From the NCBI GenBank assembly GCA_034717975.1, contig JAYEMF010000067.1, positions 1 to 35,084 of the forward strand: a stretch of 35,084 bases of DNA, written 5' to 3'. The position numbers were made by a program, and so were the translations under genes. Below the pieces are notes generated by a model, which saw only the letters and a list, made by a program, of their open reading frames with translations, searched no databases and was not told the DNA's origin. Below, one piece after another: positions 1,574-19,763 of the stretch. Position 1 is the first letter of the stretch. Every line of letters begins with the position of its first letter. This DNA comes from Campylobacterota bacterium. Its GTDB lineage: Bacteria > Campylobacterota > Campylobacteria > Campylobacterales > Sulfurimonadaceae.

Positions 1574-3376
1574 TTAAATCTCTTCTGCTTTTTGTACGTC
1601 GTAAAGAATATCGTCCATTGGGTGGCGATACATTGGCATTGCAAGACGTTTTTCATCAAGGATATGTCCGATGAAACCGATTGAACGACCGACGATGAAG
1701 AATGCGTTAAGTGTTCCAGATTCGATGAACTCATTGATCTCATCTTCCGGGTAACCCAATGCTCTCCACATATCTACCATCAAAATACCGATAGTACCAT
1801 CAACATTAAGGATCAGGTTCTCTTTTTTCGATGTTGTCAATGCTTCAACCGTTCTTGCATAGTCAAGAAGTGGTGTAGCCGGGAAATGCTCAGCTGCATA
1901 GTCCATTAAACCTTTGACACGAAGGTCAGGGTTTTTAAGTGACTTGATACGGTGACCGATTCCTGGGATTGGCACACCTTCGCCTTTCATATATTTCAGG
2001 AAGGCTTTTGGATCAAGGTTGTTGTCATCAGCATATTTGAAGTACTGAGCGGCACCATCGATTGCGCCACCGAAACGTGGACCAATAGTCAGAAGACCAG
2101 TAACCAGTGACTCGACAACAGATTTACCGGCACGAGCTGTTACTTTTGCATTGTGAGCACCAGATACTGCCGGACCGTGGTCTGCAACAGTTTTCATTAC
2201 TGTCTCAATAAAGTCTGTAGCCCATTTCGGATACTGTTTTTTGAACCATAACAGTGATACAACATCACCAATACCTTTGCCCGTATCTGGAGTAGCCACT
2301 GAAGAGATAGGGAAACCGGCGTAAGTCGCTTCATCACCACGGTCGTCAGAGATCGTACAGATGAACTGCTTGCTTCTTCTGACTTTAGGGCATACATTCA
2401 TATCCGGTTCTGCAATAGCAGGAATATTTAAAGATTCGAAAACCTCTTTGATTTTTGCCGGAAGATCATTGAATGTCGCCGGTACATGAATACCTGCTTC
2501 AGCCATTGCTCTGTTTTTATACTCAGCAGTCTCAGACTCAGCATTTGCGGAAGCACCTGCATGACCGAACTGAACACCAGAGTCATAATACTTGGCAATC
2601 GTACCGATACACCAAGCGATAATTGGCTTAGTCAACTTACCTTCTTTAATGGCTTCGATGACTTTGTACTCTTCAGTACCGCCAACTTCACCAAGAAGAA
2701 TCATATATTTAACTTCTGGGTTTTTTTCCATTCTAAGTAAGTTATCAATGAAAACAGAACCAACGAAACGGTCACCACCAATAGCAACACCCTCAGCAAT
2801 ACCATCAGCATTGATAGAGATAATGTTAGAAAGTTCGTTGAACAGACCACCTGAACGTGTTACAAGTCCACAAGAACCTGCACGGTGAAGTTTCGATTGA
2901 ACGATATTTTCAATAGTTCCACCAATATTTGCTACTTTAAATGCACCTGGAGTGATTGCACCAACCGTTGCCGGTCCAATAACTGTTACATTTTTCTCAC
3001 GTGCAGTTTGGTTCATACCACGAGCAAGTCTTTCAGGGATTCCCTCAGCAGTAATCATCATTGATGAGAAACCACCAATTTCCAATGCTTCCATTGTTAC
3101 ATCATAAGCTGTACGGAATGATGCAAAGTTTAAAAGCACATCAGCTTGAGGCTGAGCTGCTTTTGCATCAGCAGTTGTTTTATAAAGGGGTACCATGATC
3201 TCATCTGGACCGTAAAAGAATTTCTCAAACTTATTATTGCTTGTAGGTGCAACGATTGCAGCTACTGAAGGAGTTTCTCTTTTGATTGTATAGTCATAGT
3301 CAAACATTCTTTGGATAGCAGTCTTGTTGTTATTCCAAAAAATGGCTTGGGTGTCTTTTGTATATAATTGTTGCAT
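1574..3376 (-). CDS. aclA: ATP citrate lyase alpha (large) subunit
   Basis: 600 aa; SCS-alpha-like region (GPATVG, RSGGL, GEVGG, phospho-His motif FGHAGA) fused to a citrate-synthase-like C-terminus (DHGPAVSGAH, PGIGHR, LNVDG). Confidence 0.95.
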   Translation of the reverse strand: MQQLYTKDTQAIFWNNNKTAIQRMFDYDYTIKRETPSVAAIVAPTSNNKFEKFFYGPDEIMVPLYKTTADAKAAQPQADVLLNFASFRTAYDVTMEALEIGGFSSMMITAEGIPERLARGMNQTAREKNVTVIGPATVGAITPGAFKVANIGGTIENIVQSKLHRAGSCGLVTRSGGLFNELSNIISINADGIAEGVAIGGDRFVGSVFIDNLLRMEKNPEVKYMILLGEVGGTEEYKVIEAIKEGKLTKPIIAWCIGTIAKYYDSGVQFGHAGASANAESETAEYKNRAMAEAGIHVPATFNDLPAKIKEVFESLNIPAIAEPDMNVCPKVRRSKQFICTISDDRGDEATYAGFPISSVATPDTGKGIGDVVSLLWFKKQYPKWATDFIETVMKTVADHGPAVSGAHNAKVTARAGKSVVESLVTGLLTIGPRFGGAIDGAAQYFKYADDNNLDPKAFLKYMKGEGVPIPGIGHRIKSLKNPDLRVKGLMDYAAEHFPATPLLDYARTVEALTTSKKENLILNVDGTIGILMVDMWRALGYPEDEINEFIESGTLNAFFIVGRSIGFIGHILDEKRLAMPMYRHPMDDILYDVQKAEEI

Positions 3377-3385
3377 TCTTTCTCC

Positions 3386-4723
3386 TTACTTCTCTAGTGC
3401 CATACGCACGATATCGGTTACGTGTGTCTCTGGTCCATAAACTTCGATATAAAGTCCAAGTCTGTCAGCAGCTTCTTTGATGTCTTTTAAACCTTTTTCG
3501 TAGTTTGGTCCACCACGTCTAACATAGATCTTAAGGTCAACAGCTTTCATTTTATCAGCGTATACTTCAAAGGCCTGAATGATACCTGTAAAAGTTTTTG
3601 CAACATCTGTAAAGTTAGCGATAGCTCCACCGATGATCATAACTTTACCACGACCCTGAGGATCTGGTTCTCTTGTCATGAGGTCAAGCAGTGTTTCAGC
3701 GTAGAATTTCGTCTCTCCTGTAGTTGGACCACCGGAGTACTCACCATAGTTAGCAAGATCATCAATACCAGCCATGTCAGCAATAGTATCAGCATAAACA
3801 ACTGAAGCACCACCACCTGCTACCATTGTCCAGATTCTGGCTTCTGGTTTAAGTAGAGTAAGTTTAAGTGAAGCACCTGTTTTAGCATCGGCTTCTTCAA
3901 TAGCTTCGACTTCCGGAGATTTTGCTTCCATCCCAAATGCAGTAGGATACTCAACATCACCCCACTCGTCTACCATCAAGAATCCGGCAGTATCGTCAAG
4001 CTTTGCAACCATATCGAGTAGTTCGATTTTGTTACCTTGCATAACAAACGGATTGATCTCAAGGTATGCGAAGTTTAATTCACGGTAAGCTTTAAAGAAA
4101 CCGATACAAAATTCTGCAAATTGAGCTTTATCTTTTTCAGCTACGTCAGCAGGGACATTTGCTCTGATTTTTTCAGCGATCTCATCTTCAGTTGCAGTAA
4201 TAGGGAATGCTACTTCAGTAACTTTTTCATCCCAACCCTCTTCAACTTCCATTCCACCTTCTGCAGACATGTAAATAACATCATCATCACCAACACAAGT
4301 TGCTGATACATAATACTCTTCAGCTTGTTCGTGTGGTGTAAATGGCTCAACAACAAAGTGAGTTAACTTATCTACACTTGGCTCACCAGTAGGAGTATCA
4401 CCATCAAATGAAAAATAAACTGATTGCTCAGTAGAAGATTTATCATCGATCCATGAAGCCGCTTTAGCCAAAGAGACATCACCTGGTTTAGCATCTCTAA
4501 AAAGTACCAAATCATTTTTACCACGTTTACCAAACAGCATGTCCGGTTTAGCAACTAATGTCTTTTCATTCAACCATGTTTTAGTTTTTGCAGCCTCAGT
4601 CAGTTCTGATCCGTTTTGAACCATAACTGTTTCATATGCATATGTAAAATCTGGAAAATACTTATCCCAATGCTTTGCCAAAATTGACTTTGCGTCAAAT
4701 TCTCTAATCGCTTTTTGAGCCAT
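3386..4723 (-). CDS. aclB: ATP citrate lyase beta (small) subunit
   Basis: 445 aa; MAQKAIREFDAK start, KPDMLFGKRGK ATP-grasp, VAGGGASV, NYGEYSG, GGAIANFT and RRGGPNY motifs; adjacent to aclA. Confidence 0.95.
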   Translation of the reverse strand: MAQKAIREFDAKSILAKHWDKYFPDFTYAYETVMVQNGSELTEAAKTKTWLNEKTLVAKPDMLFGKRGKNDLVLFRDAKPGDVSLAKAASWIDDKSSTEQSVYFSFDGDTPTGEPSVDKLTHFVVEPFTPHEQAEEYYVSATCVGDDDVIYMSAEGGMEVEEGWDEKVTEVAFPITATEDEIAEKIRANVPADVAEKDKAQFAEFCIGFFKAYRELNFAYLEINPFVMQGNKIELLDMVAKLDDTAGFLMVDEWGDVEYPTAFGMEAKSPEVEAIEEADAKTGASLKLTLLKPEARIWTMVAGGGASVVYADTIADMAGIDDLANYGEYSGGPTTGETKFYAETLLDLMTREPDPQGRGKVMIIGGAIANFTDVAKTFTGIIQAFEVYADKMKAVDLKIYVRRGGPNYEKGLKDIKEAADRLGLYIEVYGPETHVTDIVRMALEK

Positions 4724-6632: not shown

Positions 6633-8129
6633 TTATTGCGCCGGATTGAGTGAAGCTATTGCCAGTTGTGCTATATCGATAAACCCATCTACACCAGGAA
6701 TAAACGGAATCAGTCCCGTTCCTATACCGCCCCAAATAATGAGCAGAGCCATCAAAGCGATGAGACTGATACTCAGGTCAAAAGAAAATTTCTTTTCTGC
6801 TTGAGTTGAAGGATAAAAGTACATCATTGCAATCAGTTTAAAGTAATAGTAGACCGAAATAAAAGCAGTAATTATCCCCAGGCCGGCAAGCAGTATCTGG
6901 CCCGACTCAATAGCCGCCGTGAAGATATAAAATTTTCCGAGAAAACCGATCGTTGAAGGAAAACCTGAGAGTGACAGCATAAAGACTGCCATCATCAGCG
7001 CAAGATAGGGACGCCGTTGTGCAAAGCCTTTAAAATCTTCATAGGTCATCTGTTTTTTACTTTCAGAAGCGATAAAACTCAAAATCCCGAAAGCACCTGC
7101 CGCACTTAAAAAGTAGGCGATCAGGTAAAACATGATCGCCGGTGCAGCCATTTCTGAGCCAAGACCTATCGATGCGATGGCAATAAGCATATAGCCACTA
7201 TGAACTATGCTCGATCCCGCGAGCATTCGCTTAACCTTTGACTGTGTAATCGCCAGCCATGATCCGCCGAGCAGTGTCAAAATCGTAAGAACCTGAAGCA
7301 TCTCGGTCCAGACTGCACTCACCGCGGCAAAGTCGATAAGGTAGAGTCGCAATGCGATGGCAAAGAGTGCGATTTTAAAGGTTGAGGCCATAAACATCGT
7401 AACCGGGTACGGTGCGCCATGATAGACATCAACGACCCAGGAGTGAAAGGGGACGGCACCGATCTTGAACATGATCGTCACCATAATAAAAGTACCGCCT
7501 ACAGTGATCAGTGTCAGATCCTGATCACCGGTTGCTCTGATATGCGCAGCAATATCACCCATATTTGTTGAGCCGACTGCCCCATAGATCAGTGCTGTTC
7601 CCAAAATAAAAAATGCCCCGGTCATCGATCCGAGGATCAGGTACTTCATCATCGCTTCGGAGCTGATCTTGTTGTTTTTGTGGTATCCCACCAGTGCATA
7701 GACACTGAGTGATGCAATCTCCAGGGCGATAAATGCCGTAACCAGTTCATTGGCATGGGCCAGTGTCATCATCCCAAAAACACTAAAAAGGATCAAAGCA
7801 AAATATTCGCCATTGTAGTAGTTTCGACTTTTGAAGTAGTCGGTATTGATCAGCAGGGTCAGCATCGCCCCTGCTGTAAACATCAGATCAAAAAGGGTTG
7901 AAAAATCATCGATGACATACATGGAACCGAAAATATCAGGGAAACTGTAGACTACATTCCCACTACCAAAGTTTGGCAGTTCAAGTACAAAAGAGAGTCC
8001 CAGGAAAAAGACAGCGACGAGATTCAGTTTATTCAAGTCAAATGCGCGGTTTCGGCTAAGCAGCATCAGGACAAAGGCACCAATAACAATAATTGCCATA
8101 GGCAAAATCTGTATAATTTCATGGATCAT
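6633..8129 (-). CDS. nuoN: NADH-quinone oxidoreductase subunit N
   Basis: Antiporter-like subunit; LEIASL, EAMMKY, FKIGAVPFHSW motifs; last gene of the operon; ATGA overlap with nuoM. Confidence 0.92.
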   Translation of the reverse strand: MIHEIIQILPMAIIVIGAFVLMLLSRNRAFDLNKLNLVAVFFLGLSFVLELPNFGSGNVVYSFPDIFGSMYVIDDFSTLFDLMFTAGAMLTLLINTDYFKSRNYYNGEYFALILFSVFGMMTLAHANELVTAFIALEIASLSVYALVGYHKNNKISSEAMMKYLILGSMTGAFFILGTALIYGAVGSTNMGDIAAHIRATGDQDLTLITVGGTFIMVTIMFKIGAVPFHSWVVDVYHGAPYPVTMFMASTFKIALFAIALRLYLIDFAAVSAVWTEMLQVLTILTLLGGSWLAITQSKVKRMLAGSSIVHSGYMLIAIASIGLGSEMAAPAIMFYLIAYFLSAAGAFGILSFIASESKKQMTYEDFKGFAQRRPYLALMMAVFMLSLSGFPSTIGFLGKFYIFTAAIESGQILLAGLGIITAFISVYYYFKLIAMMYFYPSTQAEKKFSFDLSISLIALMALLIIWGGIGTGLIPFIPGVDGFIDIAQLAIASLNPAQ

Positions 8130-9604
8130 TGCATACCTCCTATAGTACGCATCACCTCTGCCAATGTACTGTTGATCTGCGGTTCAAATAAAGGCATAAA
8201 CAGTGAAGGTGCAATCCCGGTAAGCAGAAGTAATACAAGGATCGGTGCAAGCATTAACATCTCCCGTAAATCCAGATCTTTAAAGGATGCAGTACAGCTG
8301 CCTGGCTGACCAAATATGGTACGCTGCAGCATCCAGAAGATATAGAGCATAGCAGATAGCATCGTGGTAGCTGTCAATGCACCGATCCAGATATTTGCCT
8401 TGAATGCACCGATGATGATCAGAAGTTCGGCAACAAACCCGCCTGTTCCCGGAAGCCCGGCGATACTGAGTGAGAAAAAGACAAAGAAAAAAGCAAAACG
8501 GGGCGCGGAGGAGGCGATGCCGCCAAGATTGTCAATGGTAACGGATCCGGCACGTTTATAGAGCAGACCGATCATTAAAAAGATACCGGCCGATGCCAAA
8601 GCATGGGTCGCAATAAAATAGAGACTTCCGCCCCAGGCATAACTGTTGGTCAAAAAGATCCCCAGTGCAATGAGGGAGAGGTGTGAACCAGACGAGTAGG
8701 CAAACATGCGGCGAAGATTCTGCTCATTGATGGCATGAATCGCATAATAGAGCATGCCGACAATAGCCAGAAGCATAATATAGGGAGCATAATAGGTCAG
8801 TGTCGTTTCGAACAGGCCGTACCCAAATCGCCAGATACCATAAACACCAAGTTTGGCCATGATCGCCGACATAATCACAACTGCCGGAGTTGGTGAAGAG
8901 CCATAAGCCGGAGCCATCCAGGTGTGAAATCCAAGCAGAGGGATCTTTATGGCGAATGCGAGCAGGAAGCCTGCCGCCAGCCAGATCGATGTTTTCGCAT
9001 CAAAACTCAGCGAGGCCAAATCATCCAGGGCAAAGCTCCAGCTTCCTGTCGTCTCAAAAAATGTGTAGCCGAGATAGAGAATAGAGAAGAGCATACTCAT
9101 CGATCCGAGAATGGTCATCAAGACGATCTTCATCGCGTTGTACTGATGTTCGCCATTGCCATAACGCCCGATCATTACAAAAATCGGCAGGAGCATCGTC
9201 TCCCAGAAGAGATAGAAGAGGATCATATCCAGTGAAAGTACGGCACCGGTAACACCCGTTTGAAGCAGCAGCATATTGTACCAATACCCTTTGCGCTCCT
9301 CTTTCCACATGTACATATATAAAATAGGCATCAACAGTGAAATCAGAGCCAGCAATACAAGCGAGAGGGCATCAACACCTACATAGTAGGTAATACCTGA
9401 GTTTTGAATCCAGGGCAGGACCCGAACAAACTGCATCTTGCCCGCCGGATCAAAATTGGCTATCACCACAGCAACAAGGAGCAAAACAGTCAGTGAAGTC
9501 AGCGCTGCACCCAGACGAAGCCAATAGAGCGGCACACGCAAAAGACCCAAGAGCAGCACAGCAAAGAGCGGCAAAAAGATGATGTCAGAGAGGATCTGTT
9601 CCAT
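8126..9604 (-). CDS. nuoM: NADH-quinone oxidoreductase subunit M
   Basis: FYLFWE, FAIKIP..FHTW, AKLGVYG, GLPGTGGFVAE motifs. Confidence 0.93.
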   Translation of the reverse strand: MEQILSDIIFLPLFAVLLLGLLRVPLYWLRLGAALTSLTVLLLVAVVIANFDPAGKMQFVRVLPWIQNSGITYYVGVDALSLVLLALISLLMPILYMYMWKEERKGYWYNMLLLQTGVTGAVLSLDMILFYLFWETMLLPIFVMIGRYGNGEHQYNAMKIVLMTILGSMSMLFSILYLGYTFFETTGSWSFALDDLASLSFDAKTSIWLAAGFLLAFAIKIPLLGFHTWMAPAYGSSPTPAVVIMSAIMAKLGVYGIWRFGYGLFETTLTYYAPYIMLLAIVGMLYYAIHAINEQNLRRMFAYSSGSHLSLIALGIFLTNSYAWGGSLYFIATHALASAGIFLMIGLLYKRAGSVTIDNLGGIASSAPRFAFFFVFFSLSIAGLPGTGGFVAELLIIIGAFKANIWIGALTATTMLSAMLYIFWMLQRTIFGQPGSCTASFKDLDLREMLMLAPILVLLLLTGIAPSLFMPLFEPQINSTLAEVMRTIGGMQ

Positions 9605-11490
9605 TACATTCCCTCCAGAGCACTAAGCATAGAGACTGACATAACAGCGATCCCTGCCAGGATATATAGCGCATAATAGCGCACTTTGCCGTTTTGCAGC
9701 TGGGCAAACAGGGCAGCGGCAGATCTGTAACTATTGACTAAAAGATGAATCACGCCATCAAACCCATGGCGATCGATCACCCGGTCAAACAGGTTGCTCA
9801 TCCCCAGAAGCGGTCTGACAATAACGCCTTCATAGAGTTCATCGATATAAAACTTGTTGATGACAACACGTTTCCAAAGCACTTTACGCTCTGGCGGCAT
9901 GGCTTCTGTCGCAAAAAGTTTGTAGGCCAATCCCATACCGATGACTCCCATCAGAACGTTAAGAGCTCCAAGAAGATACTCTTCTGTGTGGGAGAGATGC
10001 AGATCGACATCAGGCAAAGCGATAAACGATGCGAACCAGTTACTGCCGCCATAAGCTTCATTCATTCCGAGAAAACCTGCCGTAGCACTGCCAATGGCCA
10101 ATGCCACCAGCGGCCACGTCATCGTTTTTGGCAAGTGATGAAGCGAGGTATGCTCTTCTCCCTTTGCATGAAAAACGGTAAAAAGCATCCGGAACATATA
10201 GAAAGCGGTCAGCAGAGCCGTCAGCGTACCCATCCCCCAGATAAGATAATGTTCCGAAGCAAAAGCTGCTGCCAGAATGGCATCTTTACTGAAGAAACCT
10301 GCAAACGGCGGGATACCGCTGATGGCCAGTGTCGCAATCAGCATGGTCAGATAGACCAGCTTCAGATGACGACGCAGCGCGCCCATTTTAAAAATATTCT
10401 GTTCATGATGCAGGGCGATGATCACGGCCCCCGCTCCCATAAACAGCAGTGCTTTGAAAAAGGCGTGGGTAAAGACATGAAAAATTCCACTGCTGTAGGC
10501 TCCAAGTCCGACCGCAATAAACATATAACCAAGCTGCGACATCGTCGAATAGGCAAGAATTTTTTTAATGTCATCCTGATAGATGGCAATAACAGCGGCG
10601 AAGAGTGCAGATACGGCACCGACCATAGCGATAATCTCGCCAATCTGAGGGATTTCATTGTATAAAAAGCCAAAACGGGCCACCATGTAAACACCGGCCG
10701 TGACCATCGTCGCCGCATGAATCAGTGCCGAAACCGGTGTCGGACCGGCCATCGCATCAGGCAACCAGACATAGAGCGGAATCTGTGCCGATTTCCCCAT
10801 CGCCCCGACAAAGAGCAAGAGACCTATCAGTGGCAACAAAGCCGTATCAACAGTGCCTATCTCAGCCTGAATCATTGCAAAGGTGTAGCCGCTTCCCTCC
10901 AGTGCAACAAACAGCAGGGCCAGTGCCATAATAAAACCAAAATCCCCTACCCGATTCAGGATAAAGGCTTTGTTTGCCGCCTTGACATTGGCAGGGTCAC
11001 TGTAGTAAAAACCGATCAGCAGATAGGATGAGAGTCCGACCAGCTCCCATCCGACAAACATGATGATAGGGTTGTCTGCGAGCACCAACAGCAGCATACT
11101 TCCCATAAAGAGATTGAAATAAGTGAAAAACTTGCCAAATGCCGGGTCACCCTTCATATACCCTGCGGCATAGATATGGATCAGCGTACCGATAAGCGTA
11201 ATAAACGAGATCATAACGACACTCAGCCGGTCGGCCATAAAAGCTACTGCTATCCTGAAATCACCCAGAGCGATCCACTCGAAGAGCGTTGTGTGAAACA
11301 CAGCATCCATTTCACGATGAAGCATCTCCCAGCCTACCGTTAAAGCGAGTACAGTACTCATGACAGGTGCTAATATCCCTACAAATGAATAGAACCGGTA
11401 GCGCTCTTTTGATGGATTGGCGAGATAGACAACGCCCAAAAAGAGTGCCGAAAAGAAGGGGATCAGGACAATATAGATCAATGCACTCAT
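9604..11490 (-). CDS. nuoL: NADH-quinone oxidoreductase subunit L
   Basis: GWELVGLSSYLLIGF, GKSAQIPLYVWLPDAMAGPTPVSALIHAATMV, HAFFKALLF motifs. Confidence 0.95.
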   Translation of the reverse strand: MSALIYIVLIPFFSALFLGVVYLANPSKERYRFYSFVGILAPVMSTVLALTVGWEMLHREMDAVFHTTLFEWIALGDFRIAVAFMADRLSVVMISFITLIGTLIHIYAAGYMKGDPAFGKFFTYFNLFMGSMLLLVLADNPIIMFVGWELVGLSSYLLIGFYYSDPANVKAANKAFILNRVGDFGFIMALALLFVALEGSGYTFAMIQAEIGTVDTALLPLIGLLLFVGAMGKSAQIPLYVWLPDAMAGPTPVSALIHAATMVTAGVYMVARFGFLYNEIPQIGEIIAMVGAVSALFAAVIAIYQDDIKKILAYSTMSQLGYMFIAVGLGAYSSGIFHVFTHAFFKALLFMGAGAVIIALHHEQNIFKMGALRRHLKLVYLTMLIATLAISGIPPFAGFFSKDAILAAAFASEHYLIWGMGTLTALLTAFYMFRMLFTVFHAKGEEHTSLHHLPKTMTWPLVALAIGSATAGFLGMNEAYGGSNWFASFIALPDVDLHLSHTEEYLLGALNVLMGVIGMGLAYKLFATEAMPPERKVLWKRVVINKFYIDELYEGVIVRPLLGMSNLFDRVIDRHGFDGVIHLLVNSYRSAAALFAQLQNGKVRYYALYILAGIAVMSVSMLSALEGM

Positions 11491-11801
11491 GCGCCCTCTT
11501 TTGTCTGCACTAAGTTTGCGAAGCTATCACTGTCAAGCGAACGTTTACTGCGTACTAGCTGAATGATCATCGCCAGGAAAACGGCGGCTTCTGCTGCAAT
11601 AACAGCGATCAGAAGCAGAACCATAACGGAGCCGTTCATATCGCCAAAAAGGCGTGAAAATGTCACCAGCAGAAGGTTGACAGCACTTAACATCAGCTCG
11701 ATCGACATATAGACCACGAAAAGATTTCTGCGACTGACAATGCCGATCAACCCCATACTAAAAAGCAGTGTAGCGAGCATAAAAAATGGTTCAGGCGTCA
11801 T
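11487..11801 (-). CDS. nuoK: NADH-quinone oxidoreductase subunit K
   Basis: 104 aa, three hydrophobic segments; RRN, SIELML and AAEAA motifs. Confidence 0.92.
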   Translation of the reverse strand: MTPEPFFMLATLLFSMGLIGIVSRRNLFVVYMSIELMLSAVNLLLVTFSRLFGDMNGSVMVLLLIAVIAAEAAVFLAMIIQLVRSKRSLDSDSFANLVQTKEGA

Positions 11802-12300
11802 GAGAACTCTCCTTTCTGGCTATAACGATGGCAGCGACCATCGCCGTGAGCAGCAGCACTGAGACAATTTCAAATGGCAGGACCCAGGAGCTGAAAAGTT
11901 CATCGCCCATCATCTTCAGGGTGCCATAACCCTCTTTTGTATTTTCAAAACTTCGATGCAGATAGGTCAACGACTTATACATCAATATGGAAAATGGGGT
12001 GACCAGAAGTGCTGAGAGGAGCATCCACTGCAGTTTCAGCGGCTCTTGAGGAAGATTTTCCTCTTTGAGGTTTACCGAAACAACGACCATCAATGCAAGT
12101 ACCACAACCGCACCGACAGAGACCATGATCTGTGCCAGAAAGAGAAAGCTGTTCTCCAGCAGGGCAAATATCCCGGCCAGTGCCAGCATAGCTACCATAA
12201 AGCTAAATGCACTAAAGAGCGTCTGCTTAAACCAGAGCATGCCGGCAGCACCGCCAACAAGAAAAAGCGCCAACATGGCAAATATACTATTTTCGAGCAC
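11791..12300 (-). CDS. nuoJ: NADH-quinone oxidoreductase subunit J
   Basis: AQIMVSVGAVVVL and PFEIVSVLLL motifs. GTG at 12300 with a GAGGAG RBS is preferred to the longer ORF start at 12369. Confidence 0.88.
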   Translation of the reverse strand: MLENSIFAMLALFLVGGAAGMLWFKQTLFSAFSFMVAMLALAGIFALLENSFLFLAQIMVSVGAVVVLALMVVVSVNLKEENLPQEPLKLQWMLLSALLVTPFSILMYKSLTYLHRSFENTKEGYGTLKMMGDELFSSWVLPFEIVSVLLLTAMVAAIVIARKESSHDA

Positions 12301-12811
12301 GGCTCTTCTCCTCTCCGAATGCACCTTTATGGGCAAGCAGCTGCTCCTTTTCCAGGAGAAAATCTTCACGTCTGTTACCGGTCAAAGAGAAGATACCTGT
12401 ATCCATCCGGATCGCATCACACGGGCAGGCTTCAACACAGTAGCCGCAAAAGACACACTCAAGGGTATCGATCGCAAAACGTTTAGGCATCTTCTCATCC
12501 ATCTCGTCTTCACGCTCTGTCGCTTCAATGAAGATACACTCTGACGGGCAGGCGGTCGCACACATAAAACAGGCCACACAGGCGATCGAATCATCTTCGC
12601 GATGCGTCAACCGATGCAGACCACGATAACGATCAGTGATATCAGTCGGCTGCTCTTCAGGATACTCCAGTGCATCAATGGCATTGGTGTCGGCAACATT
12701 CCCCATGAGATGTCTGAAGGTGATTTTCATACCCTCATAAACAGCCGGCAGGTAGAGTTTATCTTTCACGCTCCTGCCGTAACGCGGAACAACTTTGATC
12801 TTATGGTCCAT
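12287..12811 (-). CDS. nuoI: NADH-quinone oxidoreductase subunit I
   Basis: YPEE..RYRG; two CxxCxxCxxxCP [4Fe-4S] motifs. Confidence 0.95.
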   Translation of the reverse strand: MDHKIKVVPRYGRSVKDKLYLPAVYEGMKITFRHLMGNVADTNAIDALEYPEEQPTDITDRYRGLHRLTHREDDSIACVACFMCATACPSECIFIEATEREDEMDEKMPKRFAIDTLECVFCGYCVEACPCDAIRMDTGIFSLTGNRREDFLLEKEQLLAHKGAFGEEKSRARK

Positions 12812-14100
12812 CAGGTCACTCCCACGACGACAATTGCCGTAATAAAAAGATTGAGCAGGGAGAGCGGCAGCAGATAATACCAGCCAAGATGCTGTACCTG
12901 GTCATATCGAAAACGGGGAAGCGTCCAGCGCACCAGAATGAAAAAGAGATTGAAAAGCATCAGCTTGGTAACAAAAACAGCCACCTGCAGAAGTGTCACG
13001 GCGATAGACGTCCCCAAAGCTGAAGGGAAGAGAGTAAGGTAGAGCAAGATAGCTTCAATCAACAGCGTCATCCCGATCAGTGCAACGGTAAGTACTTTCG
13101 TCTCAAATTCCCGACTGCCATCGCTCACGACCGAAGAACGGACGCAATTGTTTTTTCGCATCCAGCGGATCATCCCGTAAACGATGAGCGGCAGGACGAA
13201 CATCAGGCCCCAGGCAAAATAAGTGAAGTGTTCCAGCAGATACGCCGTACTCACCCAGGGAAGCTGATAACCGCCAAAAAGCATCGTAATGATCACGGCA
13301 CTGGCCGTATTCATCGCCACATACTCCCCCATAAAATACATTGCGAACTTCATCGCCGTATATTCGGTCATATATCCGGCGACGATCTCACTCTCACCCT
13401 CGGAAACACTGAACGGAGCCCGATTGGTTTCGGCAAAAAGCGCAACGATAAAGATCACGGCAGCAAGCGGCTGAACGATCACACCCCAGGCCGGTAAAAA
13501 CCCCAGAAGCGTTCCGCTTTGCCACTGTACCATTGCATTAAAATCAATCGTATTGTAGGTAATGACAAAAGCAATAACGCTCAGGCCAAGCGGTAACTCA
13601 TAACTCAGCATCATAGAACCTGCACGCGAGGAGCCTAAAAGTGCGTATTTGTTATGGCTCAGCCAGCCGCCAAAAAAGATACCGATCACGCCAACCGCTC
13701 CGATCGCCATATACCACAGTACGCCATAATCAACCGGCAGCGGCTGAACAGGCAGACTCTCACCGTTAATAACGATATTGTCCGCAAAAGGGATCACCAT
13801 AAAAGCCAGCAGTGCCGCTACGAAAGTGATCACTGGCGCAAGCATCATCAGCCACCGGCCGCTCTTGATATGCGAAGGGTAATACTCCTCCTTCAAGACC
13901 AGTTTAACGACATCGGCAAATGACTGCACTACACCACCCAGACGGAACCCTGCGACATTGGTCCTGTTCGGTCCCAGACGGTCCTGTATCAGCCCCGCGC
14001 CACGCCGCTCCAGCCAGACCAGTATCGGGATCATCATCAGTGCCAGCAGAGCACCCAGTGCAAAGGAGCAGATAGCGACGATAATGGCTGCCAGACTCAT
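12811..14100 (-). CDS. nuoH: NADH-quinone oxidoreductase subunit H (long form, ~429 aa)
   Basis: ERR..QDRLGPN, ADVVKL, AETNRAPF, RWTLPRFRYDQ motifs; ATG at 14100 follows an AAGGAG RBS. Confidence 0.92.
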   Translation of the reverse strand: MSLAAIIVAICSFALGALLALMMIPILVWLERRGAGLIQDRLGPNRTNVAGFRLGGVVQSFADVVKLVLKEEYYPSHIKSGRWLMMLAPVITFVAALLAFMVIPFADNIVINGESLPVQPLPVDYGVLWYMAIGAVGVIGIFFGGWLSHNKYALLGSSRAGSMMLSYELPLGLSVIAFVITYNTIDFNAMVQWQSGTLLGFLPAWGVIVQPLAAVIFIVALFAETNRAPFSVSEGESEIVAGYMTEYTAMKFAMYFMGEYVAMNTASAVIITMLFGGYQLPWVSTAYLLEHFTYFAWGLMFVLPLIVYGMIRWMRKNNCVRSSVVSDGSREFETKVLTVALIGMTLLIEAILLYLTLFPSALGTSIAVTLLQVAVFVTKLMLFNLFFILVRWTLPRFRYDQVQHLGWYYLLPLSLLNLFITAIVVVGVT

Positions 14101-15488
14101 CGGCTTACTCCTTGCAGCAGATCGATCCATTCACTCACCGTCGGTACCGGCTCGTTACGGTAGACTGCTTTGGCACAGAACTGTTCGACTCCATCTTCAT
14201 TGCTAAGCGACCCTGAACTTTCAGAGAATGTAGCCAGCGGAAGGATCAGACCTGCATTCATCGCCTGATGTGTCTGGAAACTGATACATGCATCGGCCGT
14301 GAGCGCATCGGCATCAGGATGGTTGAAGTTGATCAAGAGCCCGATCGGTTCATCTTCTGGAATGTCAGTCGCAATACCAAGTTCTTCAACGGCTTTTGCA
14401 TTGGCTGCACGCTGTGAAGAGCGGAGCCAGTCATCACCAAAATCTTCATCCGCATAACACGCCATCGGAGCGTAAAGCTTCGCCCCGAGATCGTCTGCAA
14501 ATTTCTGAATTGCTTCGAGCTCTTCCGTATAAAGATTCGCATCTGCAAGCATAACAATCTTTTCACCATTTGCTTCAACCATATGTAGACATGCTGTCAC
14601 TGCCTTATCTTGTTCAACGACCTCTCCACTCACAAGTGATTCCAGTTGGCGATTTTCCTGGAGTGTTTTATAACTGAGGCGTCCCGCATCACAGATAAAA
14701 TGGCCGTTGACCTCGCTGTTCTCACGCGGTCGGAAACGGTAGATCCTGTCGTCCTTATATTTTTCACGGTTATGGTCAATAAAGATATTGCACCCTTTGG
14801 CACAACCGTGGCAGACCGATGGTGTCGATGTCAGAAACCAGACCCGCTGGGCAAAACGGAAATCCTTGCTAGTCAATGCTCCGACCGGACAGAGATCAAC
14901 GACATTCATAGCATACGGGTTGTCAAGCTTTTTCCCCGGCATCGTACTCACACAGGCGTGATCACCCCGTCCGATAATGCCAAGTTCGTGGGTTCCGGTG
15001 ATCTTATCGGTAAAACGTGTACAGCGGGCACACAGAACGCAACGCTCCTGATCAAGCATAACATTGCTGCCAAGATCGACATGTTTACGATGGTGGACTT
15101 TATCGGCCTGATCGATCTTCGAGTCATACAGGCCATGATCCATGTAAAAATCCTGGAGTTTACACTCACCCGCCTGATCGCAGACAGGACAGTCAACCGG
15201 GTGATTGATGAGTTCCAGCTCGAGGATATTTCGACGTACCCCGTCTATATTTTCCCCTTTGGTACGGACGATCATCCCCTCTTTTACCAAAGTATCGCAA
15301 GCGATCTGCGGCCGTTTCTGTCCCTCGATCTCCACCATACACATCCGGCAGTTTCCATCCGCACCCAGAGCTTCATGGTAACAGAAGTAAGGCACCTTGA
15401 TCTCGTGTTTGATAAGAAGATCGATAAGCAAAGAGCCTGTCTCTGCTGTAAGGCTCTCATTGTCGACCGTAATCTGCACCTGACTCAT
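14097..15488 (-). CDS. nuoG: NADH-quinone oxidoreductase subunit G (C-terminally shortened)
   Basis: FCYH..GNCRMC..C (N1b), HPVDCPVCDQAGEC (N5), CVLCARC..CPVG (N4), CHGCAKGC..ICD (N7-type); 463 aa. Confidence 0.88.
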   Translation of the reverse strand: MSQVQITVDNESLTAETGSLLIDLLIKHEIKVPYFCYHEALGADGNCRMCMVEIEGQKRPQIACDTLVKEGMIVRTKGENIDGVRRNILELELINHPVDCPVCDQAGECKLQDFYMDHGLYDSKIDQADKVHHRKHVDLGSNVMLDQERCVLCARCTRFTDKITGTHELGIIGRGDHACVSTMPGKKLDNPYAMNVVDLCPVGALTSKDFRFAQRVWFLTSTPSVCHGCAKGCNIFIDHNREKYKDDRIYRFRPRENSEVNGHFICDAGRLSYKTLQENRQLESLVSGEVVEQDKAVTACLHMVEANGEKIVMLADANLYTEELEAIQKFADDLGAKLYAPMACYADEDFGDDWLRSSQRAANAKAVEELGIATDIPEDEPIGLLINFNHPDADALTADACISFQTHQAMNAGLILPLATFSESSGSLSNEDGVEQFCAKAVYRNEPVPTVSEWIDLLQGVSR

Positions 15489-16735
15489 CGCGTTCCCTTC
15501 GCTTCAAATTCGCTGCGAAACTTACCGATGAATGAGCGGATAACGATCGCCACTGCCGGAGCAAAGACGCAGATAGTTTTGCCGTCCATTGTATCGGCCA
15601 GTTCCAGCAGTTTATCAAGATCTTCACCCGAGCCCTCGCCATCAAGCACTCTGCCTACCAAGGTATCACTCCAGCCTGTTCCTTCGCGGCACGGTGTACA
15701 CTGTCCGCATGATTCGTGATGATAAAATTCCAGCAGATTTTTCAGGGCTTCGACCATATCGGTATCTTCATCCATAACAATCATTCCGCCAGTGCCCAAT
15801 GCACTCCCCATCACTTTTAAGGTCTCGTAATCAAGGTTGGCACACGCCACCTCATCGGCTGTCAATACCGCGGTCGATGCACCGCCGGGAATGACGGCTT
15901 TCAATTTTTTTCCGCCGCGGACACCGCCGCCGAAGTGATTAATATACTCCAGCATCGGTGTACCGAACTCTGCTTCATACACTCCCGGGGTCTCTACATG
16001 GCCGCTCATGGCAAAGAGCAGTGTTCCGGGGCTGTGTTCTGTACCGAAGTCACGATGCCCTTTGGCACCGTGTTTAACTATATAGGGTACGGAAGCGATT
16101 GTTTCGACATTATTGACCAGAGTAGGATTGTCAAAATACCACTCCGGCTCTTTCTGTTTCGGTTTAAGCCGCGGATGCCCCCGTTTGCCCTCCATCGACT
16201 CCAGAAGTGCCGATTTTTCGCCACAGATATATGCACCTGCTCCACGATGGATCGTGATATCAAGACGATAGTCATGCCCCATTACTTTCTCTCCGAGAAT
16301 ACCCTCGGCATACGCTTCATCAATCGCCTGCTGAAGCGTCTGCTGAAACTGATAATATTCGCCACGAATGTAAATGTATGCGTCATGCGCTTTGATGGCA
16401 TAACAGGTGATGATGATCCCCTCTATCAGCAGATGCGGGTCTTTCGTGATGATCTGACGATCTTTGAACGTGCCCGGTTCGCTCTCGTCGCAGTTGACGG
16501 CAAGGTAAGAGGGCCGTTCATCATCTTGGGGCATCAGTGCCCATTTATTGCCCGCCGGTGCACCGCCGCCGCCCTTACCGCGCAGGCCGCTCTCTTTAAT
16601 GATCTCAATAATCGCTTCTGTTGAGAGTGCAAATGCCGATGCTACGGCGTTATAACCGCCGTGCTTCTTCGCCACCTGAAGGGTATGGCTGTTTTCAATG
16701 TCAAACTTTCGGCTTACAATTCGGCTCTCTCTCAT
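15485..16735 (-). CDS. nuoF: NAD(P)H-quinone oxidoreductase subunit F (FMN, cluster N3)
   Basis: SGLRGKGG, NCDESEPGTFKD, YIRGEY, GAGAYICGE, NNVET, ESCGQCTPCREG..C motifs. Confidence 0.93.
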   Translation of the reverse strand: MRESRIVSRKFDIENSHTLQVAKKHGGYNAVASAFALSTEAIIEIIKESGLRGKGGGGAPAGNKWALMPQDDERPSYLAVNCDESEPGTFKDRQIITKDPHLLIEGIIITCYAIKAHDAYIYIRGEYYQFQQTLQQAIDEAYAEGILGEKVMGHDYRLDITIHRGAGAYICGEKSALLESMEGKRGHPRLKPKQKEPEWYFDNPTLVNNVETIASVPYIVKHGAKGHRDFGTEHSPGTLLFAMSGHVETPGVYEAEFGTPMLEYINHFGGGVRGGKKLKAVIPGGASTAVLTADEVACANLDYETLKVMGSALGTGGMIVMDEDTDMVEALKNLLEFYHHESCGQCTPCREGTGWSDTLVGRVLDGEGSGEDLDKLLELADTMDGKTICVFAPAVAIVIRSFIGKFRSEFEAKGTR

Positions 16736-17202
16736 CTGAGTTCCTTCAGGATATCATCAATCTTTTCAGGGGTCAGATTTTCATAGTAGCGGTCGTTGAT
16801 CTGCATAACAGGTGCGGTACCACAAGAGCCAAGGCACTCTACCTGGGTCAATGTATAGCGCCCGTCTTCACTGCTCTCCCCCACGTTGATATCCAAACGC
16901 TTTTTGAGATGATCGAGCATCTCTGCTTTGCCGCACAGCGCACAGGAGAGTGTTTTACAGAGTTGGATATGGTACTTTCCGACCTCTTCAAGATTGAACA
17001 TCGTATAAAATGTTGCCACACGGTAGATCTCCATCGGCGGCGTGTCAGTCAGTTTGCCAATCTCCTCTATTGCCTCCAGCGAGATCATCCCCTCCTGGTA
17101 CTGTGCCATCCAGAGGCAGGGTAGCGAAAGTGCTTTTGGAGAGGGATAACGTTTTTTAAGTGCTTCGATCTTTTCCCGGTTTTCATTACTAAACGCGAAC
17201 AT
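16732..17202 (-). CDS. nuoE: NADH-quinone oxidoreductase subunit E
   Basis: VATFYTMF; CKTLSC..CLGSC [2Fe-2S] N1a motif. Confidence 0.93.
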   Translation of the reverse strand: MFAFSNENREKIEALKKRYPSPKALSLPCLWMAQYQEGMISLEAIEEIGKLTDTPPMEIYRVATFYTMFNLEEVGKYHIQLCKTLSCALCGKAEMLDHLKKRLDINVGESSEDGRYTLTQVECLGSCGTAPVMQINDRYYENLTPEKIDDILKELR

Positions 17203-18905
17203 TATCTATCCATCTCCCCGGCAATAATATTGAGGCTTCCCAAGGTCAAAATGGCATCCCCCACCTGATAATTCTCAATGATCTTCGGATAGGCTGCCAT
17301 ATGTACGAAACTCGGTGCTCTCACTTTTACTTTATAGGGTGTTCCACTGCCGTCACTCACAATATAGAATCCAAGCTCGCCATTGGCCGCTTCAAAAGCG
17401 CCATAATACTCCCCTTTGGGAACTTTAACCCCTTCATAGACCAGTTTAAACTGATTTATAGTCCCCTCGATGGTGTTATAGACAGCCGGTTTTGGCGGCA
17501 TCGTGATCCGGTGATCAGCTACATTGATCGGACCATCCGGGATCGACGCAGCTGCCTGACGGATAATACGCATACTCTGTAACATCTCTTCAAAACGTAC
17601 CATCAATCGGTCATAGGTATCGCCCACCGAACCGACGACCATATCAAAATCGAAGGTATCATAATAGTAGTGCGGTGAAGCAAAACGCAGATCGTACGCC
17701 ACGCCGCTTGCCCGAAGATTGGGACCGGTAAACCCATAGGCGATCGCCTGCTCGGCACTTACCGGCGAGACATCCTGCAGACGGTCCTGGAAGATGCGGT
17801 TATGCTCGGTCATCTTCAACGTCTCGGCGATACCGGTGTCAATCTTCTTCAGTACATCGTCGAGATCTTCTTTCCAGCCCTCATAGAGATCATGCGTCAT
17901 CCCGCCGATACGCATGTAGCTGTTGGTCAGTCGCGCACCGGTCAATTTACTTAAAAAGTCATACGCATCGTTACGCGGATTAAAGAGGTACCAGTAGTTC
18001 GTCTGCCCTCCCATATCTAGCAGTCCTGCTGCCAGACAGACAAGGTGATCGATAACACGGGAGAGTTCGGCAAGGATCACCCGGATAAAAATACCGCGAT
18101 CAGGCAGTGTGATGCCGATCATCTCCTCAACAGTTTTGACAAAAGCGATATTGTTCATCAATGCCGAACAGTAGTTCAGTCGATCCGTGTAGGGGATGAT
18201 CTGATTGTAAGTATGGTTTTCGCAACTCTTCTCAAAACCGCGGTGAAGGTAGCCGATCTCACTTGCCCCGGCAACAATCTTCTCACCATCAAGTGCTGCC
18301 AGCGTCCGGATGGTTCCGTGACTGGCCGGATGCGAAGGTCCCAGGTTCAGGATCATCAGTTGATCGCGTTCCTGATCCAGTCCCCTCTCCTCGAGCAGCG
18401 GATTCAACTCATCCATCATATCCTGTGTCTGGGTACACTGCTGCCCTTCGGTGATCTCATAATCTTTACGAAGCGGATGCCCTTTAAACTCATTGTGGTT
18501 AAGAATGCGTTTAGGGGTAGGATGGCTTTGAAAAACAATACCGTACTGGTCCCACACTTCACGTTCAAGCCACTCCGCCGCTTCAAAGAGAGGGACCAGA
18601 GTGGCAACACCCTCTTCCGGGTCACCCACAGCTACTTTCAAGGCCATAACTTCTTTAAAGCCACTATGTCGGAAGAGATATACCAGTTCAAATCGGCTTG
18701 AAGAGGGGTGCGGCATCGCGAGGTTGTCAACGGCTGTAATATCCAGCAGCAACGTGTAGCTCATCGCTTCTTTCATATAACGCACCATCTCAACCAGTTT
18801 TCCCGGTTCTGCCAGAATCATCGGCGTTGTACCCATCATTTTAAGTAACGAAGCGGTTTCAAACTGCTCCAATAACGGCTGACAAGGCATACACTCACTC
18901 TTCAT
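17202..18905 (-). CDS. nuoCD: Fused NADH-quinone oxidoreductase subunit C/D
   Basis: NuoC motifs (EREVWD, GHPLRKDY) are in frame with NuoD motifs (NLGPSHPASHG, IGYLHRGFEK, DRLNY, GEMDR); no NiFe CxxC pairs. Start at 18905 or 18890. Confidence 0.9.
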   Translation of the reverse strand: MKSECMPCQPLLEQFETASLLKMMGTTPMILAEPGKLVEMVRYMKEAMSYTLLLDITAVDNLAMPHPSSSRFELVYLFRHSGFKEVMALKVAVGDPEEGVATLVPLFEAAEWLEREVWDQYGIVFQSHPTPKRILNHNEFKGHPLRKDYEITEGQQCTQTQDMMDELNPLLEERGLDQERDQLMILNLGPSHPASHGTIRTLAALDGEKIVAGASEIGYLHRGFEKSCENHTYNQIIPYTDRLNYCSALMNNIAFVKTVEEMIGITLPDRGIFIRVILAELSRVIDHLVCLAAGLLDMGGQTNYWYLFNPRNDAYDFLSKLTGARLTNSYMRIGGMTHDLYEGWKEDLDDVLKKIDTGIAETLKMTEHNRIFQDRLQDVSPVSAEQAIAYGFTGPNLRASGVAYDLRFASPHYYYDTFDFDMVVGSVGDTYDRLMVRFEEMLQSMRIIRQAAASIPDGPINVADHRITMPPKPAVYNTIEGTINQFKLVYEGVKVPKGEYYGAFEAANGELGFYIVSDGSGTPYKVKVRAPSFVHMAAYPKIIENYQVGDAILTLGSLNIIAGEMDR

Positions 18906-19413
18906 CAAGTTTACCTTTGAATTCCGTGTTTCGCACTTCAAATGTCGGCTCTCTCCACAACTGCTTCTGGATCTGGATCACCGCATCAAGCATCGCCTCC
19001 GGACGCGGAGGACAACCGGCGACATAGACATCTACGGGAACGATCTCATCGATCCCCTGCAGTGTCGTGTAGTTGTCATAAAAACCGCCGGTGGAAGCAC
19101 AGGCACCGACCGCAATCACCCATTTTGGTTCCGGCATCTGATCGTAGATCTGCTTGAGAATGGGAGCCTGCTTATAGCTTACTGTTCCGGCAACAACCAG
19201 AAGGTCAGCATGACGAGGTGAAAATCGGAGTACCTCCGCACCAAAACGGGAAATATCGTAGCGGCTGGCCGCAGTTGCCATAAACTCGATCGCACAGCAG
19301 GCCGTACCGAACACAAACGGCCAGAGTGAGGACTGTCTGCCCCAGTTGACCACCGCATCCACTTTTGTTGTGACGATACTGTCGCCAAGCAGATTGCTGT
19401 TACTCAGGTCCAT
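18895..19413 (-). CDS. nuoB: NADH-quinone oxidoreductase subunit B
   Basis: GTACCAIE, SPRHAD, GACA and GCPPRPE motifs (cluster N2). Confidence 0.95.
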   Translation of the reverse strand: MDLSNSNLLGDSIVTTKVDAVVNWGRQSSLWPFVFGTACCAIEFMATAASRYDISRFGAEVLRFSPRHADLLVVAGTVSYKQAPILKQIYDQMPEPKWVIAVGACASTGGFYDNYTTLQGIDEIVPVDVYVAGCPPRPEAMLDAVIQIQKQLWREPTFEVRNTEFKGKLDEE

Positions 19414-19763
19414 CGCAAGATTCCTGACTTGTAGACATAGATCAGCCCACCGACGAGCAGTCCGATAAAGACAAACATCTCCATCACGCCAAAGAGTCCC
19501 AACTCCCGCAGGTTCAGTGCCCAGGGAAACATAAAGAGCACCTCAACATCAAAGATCAGGAAAATAATACCGACAAGAAAGAACTTGACATTAAAGATAT
19601 CGGTAGGGTCTTTATGAGTAAGGCGGACACCCCCTTCATAAGGCTCGTTTTTTCGTACATTATCACTTTTTGCACCGAGATAGCGGGTAAGATGGAAAAG
19701 CAGGGGCAAAATGATAATAAGAGCTATAATCATGGCTGAGGCTAAAAGGAGGGAATCGGACAT
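19404..19763 (-). CDS. nuoA: NADH-quinone oxidoreductase subunit A
   Basis: PYEGG and FLIFDVE..FPWA motifs; 119 aa; first gene of the operon. Confidence 0.93.
   Translation of the reverse strand: MSDSLLLASAMIIALIIILPLLFHLTRYLGAKSDNVRKNEPYEGGVRLTHKDPTDIFNVKFFLVGIIFLIFDVEVLFMFPWALNLRELGLFGVMEMFVFIGLLVGGLIYVYKSGILRWT

Follow-up and report, generated by a model that had tools for sequence, protein, structure and literature searches.

A candidate NADP(H)-accepting nucleotide pocket in the NuoF subunit of Campylobacterota complex I

To our knowledge, complex I is regarded as an enzyme of NADH (reduced nicotinamide adenine dinucleotide), and use of the phosphorylated dinucleotide NADPH has so far been obtained through engineering; in the Escherichia coli NuoF Glu183 variants of Morina et al., removal of the Glu reportedly lets complex I use NADPH. 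The subject of this analysis is the nuoF gene on a 35,084-nucleotide stretch of DNA from a Campylobacterota bacterium of the Sulfurimonadaceae (assembly GCA_034717975.1, contig JAYEMF010000067.1, positions 1 to 35,084 of the forward strand), the whole of which is called the window in the following. From three deviating nucleotide-contacting segments in its product, an initial annotation had proposed a complex I that oxidizes NADPH, produces it by reverse electron transport for carbon fixation or uses another donor.

In the NuoEF module of Aquifex, the adenine is contacted by Phe71, Phe79, Tyr205, Pro206 and Val207, the adenine ribose by Lys76 and the pyrophosphate by Lys202 and, through water, by Glu185 and Gly394, the backbone of the latter holding the bridging water molecule, while Gly67, Glu95, Glu97, Asp103 and Tyr180 are the contacts on the nicotinamide side (PMC9299107). 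HydABC of Acetobacterium woodii uses NAD+, whereas HydABC of Thermoanaerobacter kivui 'operates on NADP+', and in its structure 8A6T the NADP+ is bound through the Gly-rich loop, Phe205 and Arg340 (PMC10021017). In Cupriavidus necator, the engineered HoxF variant E341A/S342R makes the NAD+-dependent soluble hydrogenase accept NADP+ (reviewed in PMC10127272).

The nucleotide pocket of NuoF

The nuoF gene (15485..16735, minus strand; protein P0001) encodes the 51-kDa subunit of complex I that binds flavin mononucleotide (FMN) and the nucleotide, a protein of 416 amino acids whose frame contains zero stops. All three segments quoted in the initial annotation are present in the translation, and the GEK motif, the lost Phe residues and the changed PPFP segment described there are borne out by translation, coordinates and phmmer alignments alike. 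In the Gly-rich loop segment GLRGKGGGGAPAGNKWAL (residues 50-67; 16535..16588, minus strand), the canonical Arg54, Ala57, Phe59 and Phe67 are replaced by Lys, Gly, Ala and Leu, respectively, with Gly55 and Lys64 unchanged. The segment YICGEKSAL (residues 169-177; 16205..16231, minus strand) has kept Tyr169 and Glu173, while Glu174, by alignment column the second Glu of GEE, has become Lys, the AAA codon of this Lys lying at 16214..16216 on the minus strand, as annotated. The third nucleotide-binding segment, PRLKPKQKEPEWYF (residues 188-201; 16133..16174, minus strand), retains Lys191, but compared to the canonical sequence Pro193 is changed to Lys or His, Phe194 is lost, Ala196 is Glu and Gly199 is Trp, Phe or Tyr.

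That the Lys might not align to the discriminating Glu had been named at the outset as a possible refutation, which fails. The best phmmer match among sequences of the Protein Data Bank is NuoF of Paracoccus (8qby_F; E-value 7.4e-124), and in the alignments to 8qby_F and to Mycobacterium smegmatis NuoF (8e9g_F) Lys174 is aligned to the second Glu of GEE, Ala59 and Leu67 to both Phe residues of GAGF...KWSF and Lys193-Gln194-Lys195 to Pro-Phe-Pro, with no indel. Offsets put Lys174 at E183 of E. coli (174+9) and E185 of Thermus and Aquifex (174+11), with which the invariance of the column agrees. As judged from these alignments, all three Phe residues that stack the adenine in canonical NuoF are gone.

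How far these replacements stand out was assessed by a column comparison of 26 clade sequences, 24 orthologues from six Campylobacterota families and two from public contigs, with 65 outgroup sequences, in which a site counted as conserved when at least 80% of the outgroup agreed (158 sites). While 97 sites are conserved with the same residue in both groups (at least 90% in the clade and at least 85% in the outgroup), 16 of the 158 outgroup-conserved sites are replaced in the clade, namely 22, 54, 57, 59, 67, 174, 193, 194, 196, 199, 264, 391, 393, 395, 398 and 399. Nine of the 16 fall inside the three nucleotide-binding segments, to which 32 of the 158 conserved sites belong (hypergeometric p = 8e-4). 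In the outgroup, columns 174, 59, 67 and 194 read Glu, Phe, Phe and Phe without exception (100%), residues found in 0% of the clade, and on this comparison the deviations are far beyond chance. Column 174 is Lys in 26/26 clade members and Glu in 65/65 outgroup NuoF; His or Lys occupies column 193 in 24 of the 26, column 194 is variable (Gly in 9, Gln in 6, Arg in 3) and column 199 carries a new Trp, Phe or Tyr in every member.

Another five of the 16 replaced sites form a block just past the fourth cysteine of the iron-sulfur cluster N3 (residues 389-399; 15539..15571, minus strand, beginning at that cysteine), in which Leu391 is changed to Phe, Asp393 to Pro, Ala395 to Val, Pro398 to Val and Val399 to Ile. 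As residue 390 corresponds by offset to Aquifex Gly394 and the block starts one residue after it, this second cluster of clade-specific changes adjoins the same nucleotide site.

Transferred by offset, the Aquifex contacts divide into two groups. The six adenosine-side positions 59, 67, 174, 194, 195 and 196 (Phe71, Phe79, Glu185, Tyr205, Pro206 and Val207 in Aquifex) are all changed in the clade, with position 195 still Pro in a minority of members, whereas 24 clade sequences show no variation at the seven other contacts (55, 64, 84, 86, 92, 169 and 191, for Aquifex Gly67, Lys76, Glu95, Glu97, Asp103, Tyr180 and Lys202). The FMN and N3 ligands, described as intact in the initial annotation, are so throughout the clade: the FMN-side positions do not vary, and the N3 ligands Cys343, Cys346 and Cys349 (15689..15709, minus strand) together with Cys389 are invariant in both clade alignments made. 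Residue conservation thus shows the hydride-transfer machinery to be intact, from the FMN loop and cluster N3 to the acidic residues on the nicotinamide side and the lysines at the pyrophosphate. Judged by the contact positions, the change is selective, with the adenosine subsite rewired and the nicotinamide, pyrophosphate and FMN-side positions kept.

The protein otherwise has the features of its family. It contains the domains PF01512 (Complex1_51K; E-value 1.4e-44), PF22461 (SLBB; 8.6e-10) and PF10589 (NADH_4Fe-4S; 1.4e-27) and passes the NCBIfam NuoF equivalog NF010120 (score 491.1, cut-off 389), while with 536.1 bits it stays under the curated cut-off of 558.65 of the equivalog TIGR01959 (nuoF_fam). 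The AlphaFold2 model is confident (predicted local distance difference test score 96.0, predicted template modelling score 0.94) and superposes in Foldseek on the canonical NuoF structures 9g83_F and 8qby_F with a template modelling score of 0.95-0.96 and a root-mean-square deviation of 1.6-1.7 at 47-48% identity; in the model, therefore, the backbone of the pocket is kept and its lining alone differs.

Distribution of the altered pocket

The GEK motif is present in 120/120 close homologues, that is the query and 119 matches of 72-88% identity, 103 of which fit the first pattern while the other 17 end in Met, not Leu. In all 26 clade orthologues GEK precedes a Ser or Thr, GKGGGG is present, PRLKP lacks a Phe behind it and the segment past the last N3 cysteine is altered. 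A singleton or a sequencing error, considered as a possible refutation in the initial annotation, is thereby excluded for the GEK motif and the Phe losses, which are conserved throughout a monophyletic clade.

Among 301 genomes of the family, an orthologue-level match was recovered in 72 (58-100% identity; eight fragments). In a phylum-wide sample of 401 genomes the orthologue was present in 54, distributed by family as 20/23 in f7, 18/19 in f11, 3/20 in f4, 10/158 in f3 (10/13 in its genus g33), 1/1 in f14 and 0/118 in f2. Exact-sequence look-up assigned carriers to Campylobacter hyointestinalis, C. lanienae and C. devanensis, to Sulfurospirillum multivorans, S. halorespirans, Arcobacter nitrofigilis, Aliarcobacter cryaerophilus and Malaciobacter mytili as well as to Candidatus Sulfurimonas marisnigri and a Sulfuricurvum. 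Heterotrophs with the same signature thus occur in the Arcobacteraceae, in Sulfurospirillum and in the Campylobacter fetus group. With the signature in C. hyointestinalis, C. lanienae, Sulfurospirillum, Arcobacter, Aliarcobacter and Malaciobacter, the link to carbon fixation through the reverse tricarboxylic acid (TCA) cycle drawn in the initial annotation does not hold in general, and an account specific to this cycle describes at best one use of a general trait.

Outside the phylum the motif was not encountered in the sequences compared. In a HMMER scan of 1.84 billion representatives, which retrieved 18,777 family members, GEK occurs in one of the best 150 of these 18,777, a 219-amino-acid fragment of the same clade. 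None of the 78 non-Campylobacterota NuoF among the public-genome matches listed has Lys at the GEE column; these have GEE, except for four longer proteins with GEA. These four (L065, L069, L076 and L108; frames of 348-615 amino acids), from Gemmatimonadaceae and Burkholderiales-type genomes, have PPRL in place of PPFP.

In a quick maximum-likelihood tree (IQ-TREE; 91 sequences), for which, as for the site scan, outgroup frames below 390 or above 520 amino acids were excluded so that 65 outgroup sequences entered, the 26 GEK sequences are on one branch with a Shimodaira-Hasegawa approximate likelihood ratio support of 100. Its sister sequences, canonical without exception, come from a genome of candidate division FCPU426 and from two of uncultured 'delta proteobacterium'. 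The tree shows the GEK clade to be monophyletic and, as far as can be read from the sequences compared, the remodelling of the pocket to be phylum-wide and of single origin, in the ancestor of all Campylobacterota NuoF.

A different NuoF-like gene of 35-39% identity, with frames of 450-580 amino acids, is found in 32 of the 301 family genomes, three of which have both genes; the genome of the window is not among its carriers. In the examples at L020-L023 and L039 (genomes G217, G131, G038, G228 and G308), GEA stands for GEE and PPH for PPF, a pattern that resembles the NADP type, and the product may possibly be the diaphorase of a soluble hydrogenase.

Cofactor preference

For a subunit which is the flavoprotein of a complete NuoEFG-bearing complex I, we lean towards a specificity that has been relaxed or switched towards NADP(H). 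With the acidic Glu turned into Lys, the three stacking aromatic residues removed, a His or Lys placed beside the lost Phe and a new aromatic residue five positions on, the pocket would no longer repel the 2'-phosphate of NADP(H) and would probably bind it, and the enzyme would act as a quinone oxidoreductase with a preference for NAD(P)H or NADPH. In this bacterium, a sulfur-oxidising autotroph, the complex would run in reverse, with the proton-motive force driving electrons from menaquinol to NADP+ or NAD+, while in heterotrophic relatives it would run forward. We consider a dual specificity likelier than a strict one for NADPH.

The use of NADPH proposed in the initial annotation is supported by the restriction of the change to the adenosine subsite, by the precedent of T. 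kivui HydB and by a coupling of the two kinds of loss: among 145 NuoF-like representatives scored (five of 150 were skipped), the aromatic residue at column 194 is lost in 12 of the 14 that lack the Glu and in 6 of the 131 that keep it (Fisher p = 1e-11, here as in the counts above with shared ancestry uncorrected). Its strict form, on the other hand, is doubtful. Pyruvate dehydrogenase E1 is above cut-off in three Arcobacteraceae genomes with a GEK-type NuoF, and the transhydrogenase subunit PntB was found in none of the five GEK-NuoF genomes searched; NADH must therefore be re-oxidised somehow in these bacteria, which argues for dual over strict NADPH specificity unless an NDH-2 exists.

Besides the Arcobacteraceae genomes and the uncorrected ancestry, several points weigh against a shift towards NADP(H). 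The equivalences to E. coli, Thermus and Aquifex residues come from offset arithmetic on alignment ranges rather than from direct alignments, and that the amine of Lys174 may reach the 2'-phosphate is an inference from the sequence. The Arg that contacts NADP+ in T. kivui is not reproduced, column 194 being Arg in 3/26 clade members while the conserved basic residues are Lys174 and, in the neighbouring column, His or Lys193, and the protein is still assigned to the NuoF equivalog NF010120. In addition, the genome has alternative possible routes to NADPH. One is PntB (G000:C37:4034-5398), which is rare in the family with 5/301 genomes, all five of which also have GEK-type NuoF, a co-occurrence that links the two but gives no direction; Zwf was not found in this genome. 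The other is a second complex I locus on contig C5, of the usual epsilon type with separate nuoC and nuoD, which encodes a 664-amino-acid subunit (L122:4058-6052) composed of the NuoF iron-sulfur domain, Fer4_20 and a GltD/NfnB-like pyridine-nucleotide oxidoreductase domain; next to it lie two NuoG copies of long form, with 761 and 829 amino acids. Such a subunit has been proposed as NAD(P)H site in Sulfurimonas denitrificans (preprint 10.1101/717884). With PntB and the GltD-like subunit present, NADPH supply does not require the enzyme with NuoF. The NuoF in the window is the sole one in the genome.

The main alternative, of lesser but still appreciable probability, is a complex I that continues to prefer NADH, in which the changes in the pocket tune affinity, for instance by a weaker binding of NAD+ and NADH that helps the product to leave during reverse electron transport or yields fewer reactive oxygen species, or are a fixed historical accident compensated by the aromatic residue at 199-201. 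The new Trp, Phe or Tyr at column 199 could indeed restore adenine stacking, the family tests in general return NuoF despite the missed TIGR01959 cut-off, the operon is complete, and the Arcobacteraceae carriers with their NADH-producing pyruvate dehydrogenase E1 and no PntB found would be accommodated. The publications consulted likewise assume NADH, as the genes of the clade are termed 'canonical nuoEF' or 'resembling nuoEF from E. coli', or NADH is listed as donor (PMC6682613, PMC5630845, PMC2147049, PMC4794192). Affinity tuning, however, does not necessitate the replacement of all six adenosine contacts, and the exchange of Glu for Lys is a charge reversal at a column without variation in either group, which is also non-acidic in the NADP+-dependent HydB of T. 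kivui.

Improbable is a site that no longer binds a nicotinamide dinucleotide and receives electrons from ferredoxin, flavodoxin or another cofactor. The adenine-stacking residues are gone, and Campylobacterota do feed their other complex I from flavodoxin (PMC6682613), but the invariance of the FMN-side residues and of the contacts on the nicotinamide and pyrophosphate sides makes 'another donor', the last option of the initial annotation, unlikely; moreover the fold of the pocket is unchanged and the separate epsilon-type complex I in the genome serves such donors. A sequencing or assembly artefact or a decaying gene has a negligible probability given the open frame, the 97 sites identical to the outgroup and the recurrence of the same residues in 120/120 and 26/26 independent sequences.

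Returning to a specificity shifted towards NADP(H), a more far-reaching proposal, put forward tentatively and as somewhat short of probable, sees in the NuoEF-type complex I of Campylobacterota a proton pump that occurs naturally and acts as an NADPH:menaquinone oxidoreductase or, failing that, as one for NAD(P)H. If true, a natural complex I would for the first time be connected directly to the NADP pool, and through it heterotrophs would feed NADPH into respiration and sulfur-oxidising autotrophs would make NADPH for the reverse TCA cycle and biosynthesis by the proton-motive force without a transhydrogenase. A natural lineage with Lys in exchange for the discriminating Glu would mean that evolution had taken the step known from engineering. 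Models of reducing power would be altered for the sulfur-oxidising Campylobacterota that dominate sulfidic, low-oxygen habitats, for Arcobacter, for Sulfurospirillum and for the Campylobacter fetus group, in which the genes are now annotated and discussed as ordinary NADH dehydrogenase. In the open literature no altered pocket, NADPH use or assay was found for Campylobacterota NuoF, subscription journals being mostly outside the search. As several carriers have been cultured and NuoEF modules can be expressed alone, the idea is directly testable.

Operon and comparison with described systems

The complex I operon of the window lies on the minus strand and comprises nuoA (19404..19763), nuoB (18895..19413), a fused nuoCD (17202..18941; 579 amino acids), nuoE (16732..17202; 156 amino acids; PF01257, E-value 2.7e-53), nuoF, a short nuoG (14097..15488; 463 amino acids) and nuoH, nuoI, nuoJ, nuoK, nuoL, nuoM and nuoN (6633..14130), nuoF thus standing between nuoE and nuoG. 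Among the sequencing runs listed for 14100..17200, none was of RNA. The match of TIGR01973 to nuoG spans just profile positions 1-332 of 606. The protein has kept the N-terminal iron-sulfur domains and little of the molybdopterin-like domain; NuoG is similarly short across the clade (441-469 aligned residues), with 520-544 amino acids in the nearest outgroups. In one genome (G518; L130:17381-18385) nuoF is followed by a leucine-rich-repeat protein and not by nuoG, and none of the genes nuoG to nuoN was found in the 16 kb downstream, which is either a rearrangement or a misassembly.

Two minus-strand genes 1.9 kb beyond nuoN, which we take to be ATP-citrate-lyase-like aclB (3386-4723) and aclA (1574-3376), match families of succinyl-CoA ligase and citryl-CoA lyase weakly. 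The initial annotation had cited their proximity in favour of a role in carbon fixation; the adjacency is retained in just two of eight relatives with an intact operon and was rejected as a functional link. A gene for citrate synthase (PF00285) is located within the operon, between nuoF and nuoG, in two loci of Arcobacteraceae (L041:5217-6560 and L042:5284-6570, the latter with an E-value of 2.5e-128), so that citrate enzymes stand beside the same complex I in both settings, citrate synthase within these loci and ATP-citrate lyase past nuoN here.

A described protein with similar losses is HydB of T. kivui, like the Campylobacterota NuoF a natural member of the NuoF family in which the second Glu and the Phe of PPFP are lost. 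In the alignments, T. kivui HydB (8a6t_B) has Ser320 in column 174 and Arg340 in column 194 and reads GE-Ser320, PP-Arg340 and KWLG, where A. woodii HydB has GEE, PPFP and KWQF; with Gly at the Phe position of KWxF, it lacks this Glu as well as two of the three aromatic residues lost in the clade. It differs in being part of a soluble electron-bifurcating hydrogenase, not of complex I, in retaining the first Phe (Phe205) and in the placement of the positive charge, which is at the Phe column in HydB while the invariant basic residue of Campylobacterota NuoF is at the Glu column. NuoF-like representatives of a group with 630-775 amino acids (P0215, P0229 and P0267) have GES and, where PPFP has its Phe, a basic His or Arg, as in T. 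kivui HydB, and may be further members of NADP type.

In the engineered C. necator HoxF E341A/S342R a Glu is removed and an adjacent Arg gained, upon which NAD+ dependence is relaxed towards NADP+, but the protein is a hydrogenase diaphorase and the assignment of E341 to the GEE column is tentative. The Glu183 variants of E. coli concern the GEE column too but are engineered single substitutions, whereas the change in the clade is natural, clade-wide and accompanied by the loss of all three aromatic residues. With canonical NuoF, Nqo1 and NDUFV1 (Paracoccus 8QBY_F, M. smegmatis 8E9G_F, Aquifex NuoEF 6HL2) the clade shares domains, fold, FMN loop, nicotinamide-side residues, N3 cysteines and a nuoA-N operon; it departs from them in the Lys at the GEE Glu, in the loss of the aromatic residues equivalent to Aquifex Phe71, Phe79 and Tyr205, in a basic or polar stretch in place of Pro-Phe-Pro and in the altered segment past the fourth N3 cysteine. 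The epsilon-type complex I of Campylobacter jejuni and Sulfurimonas denitrificans, from the same phylum, also has a non-standard electron input module, but there NuoE and NuoF are absent and flavodoxin or a GltD/NfnB-like subunit takes their place, whereas the operon in the window retains nuoE and nuoF, hence is not of the epsilon type, and has its nucleotide pocket alone changed.

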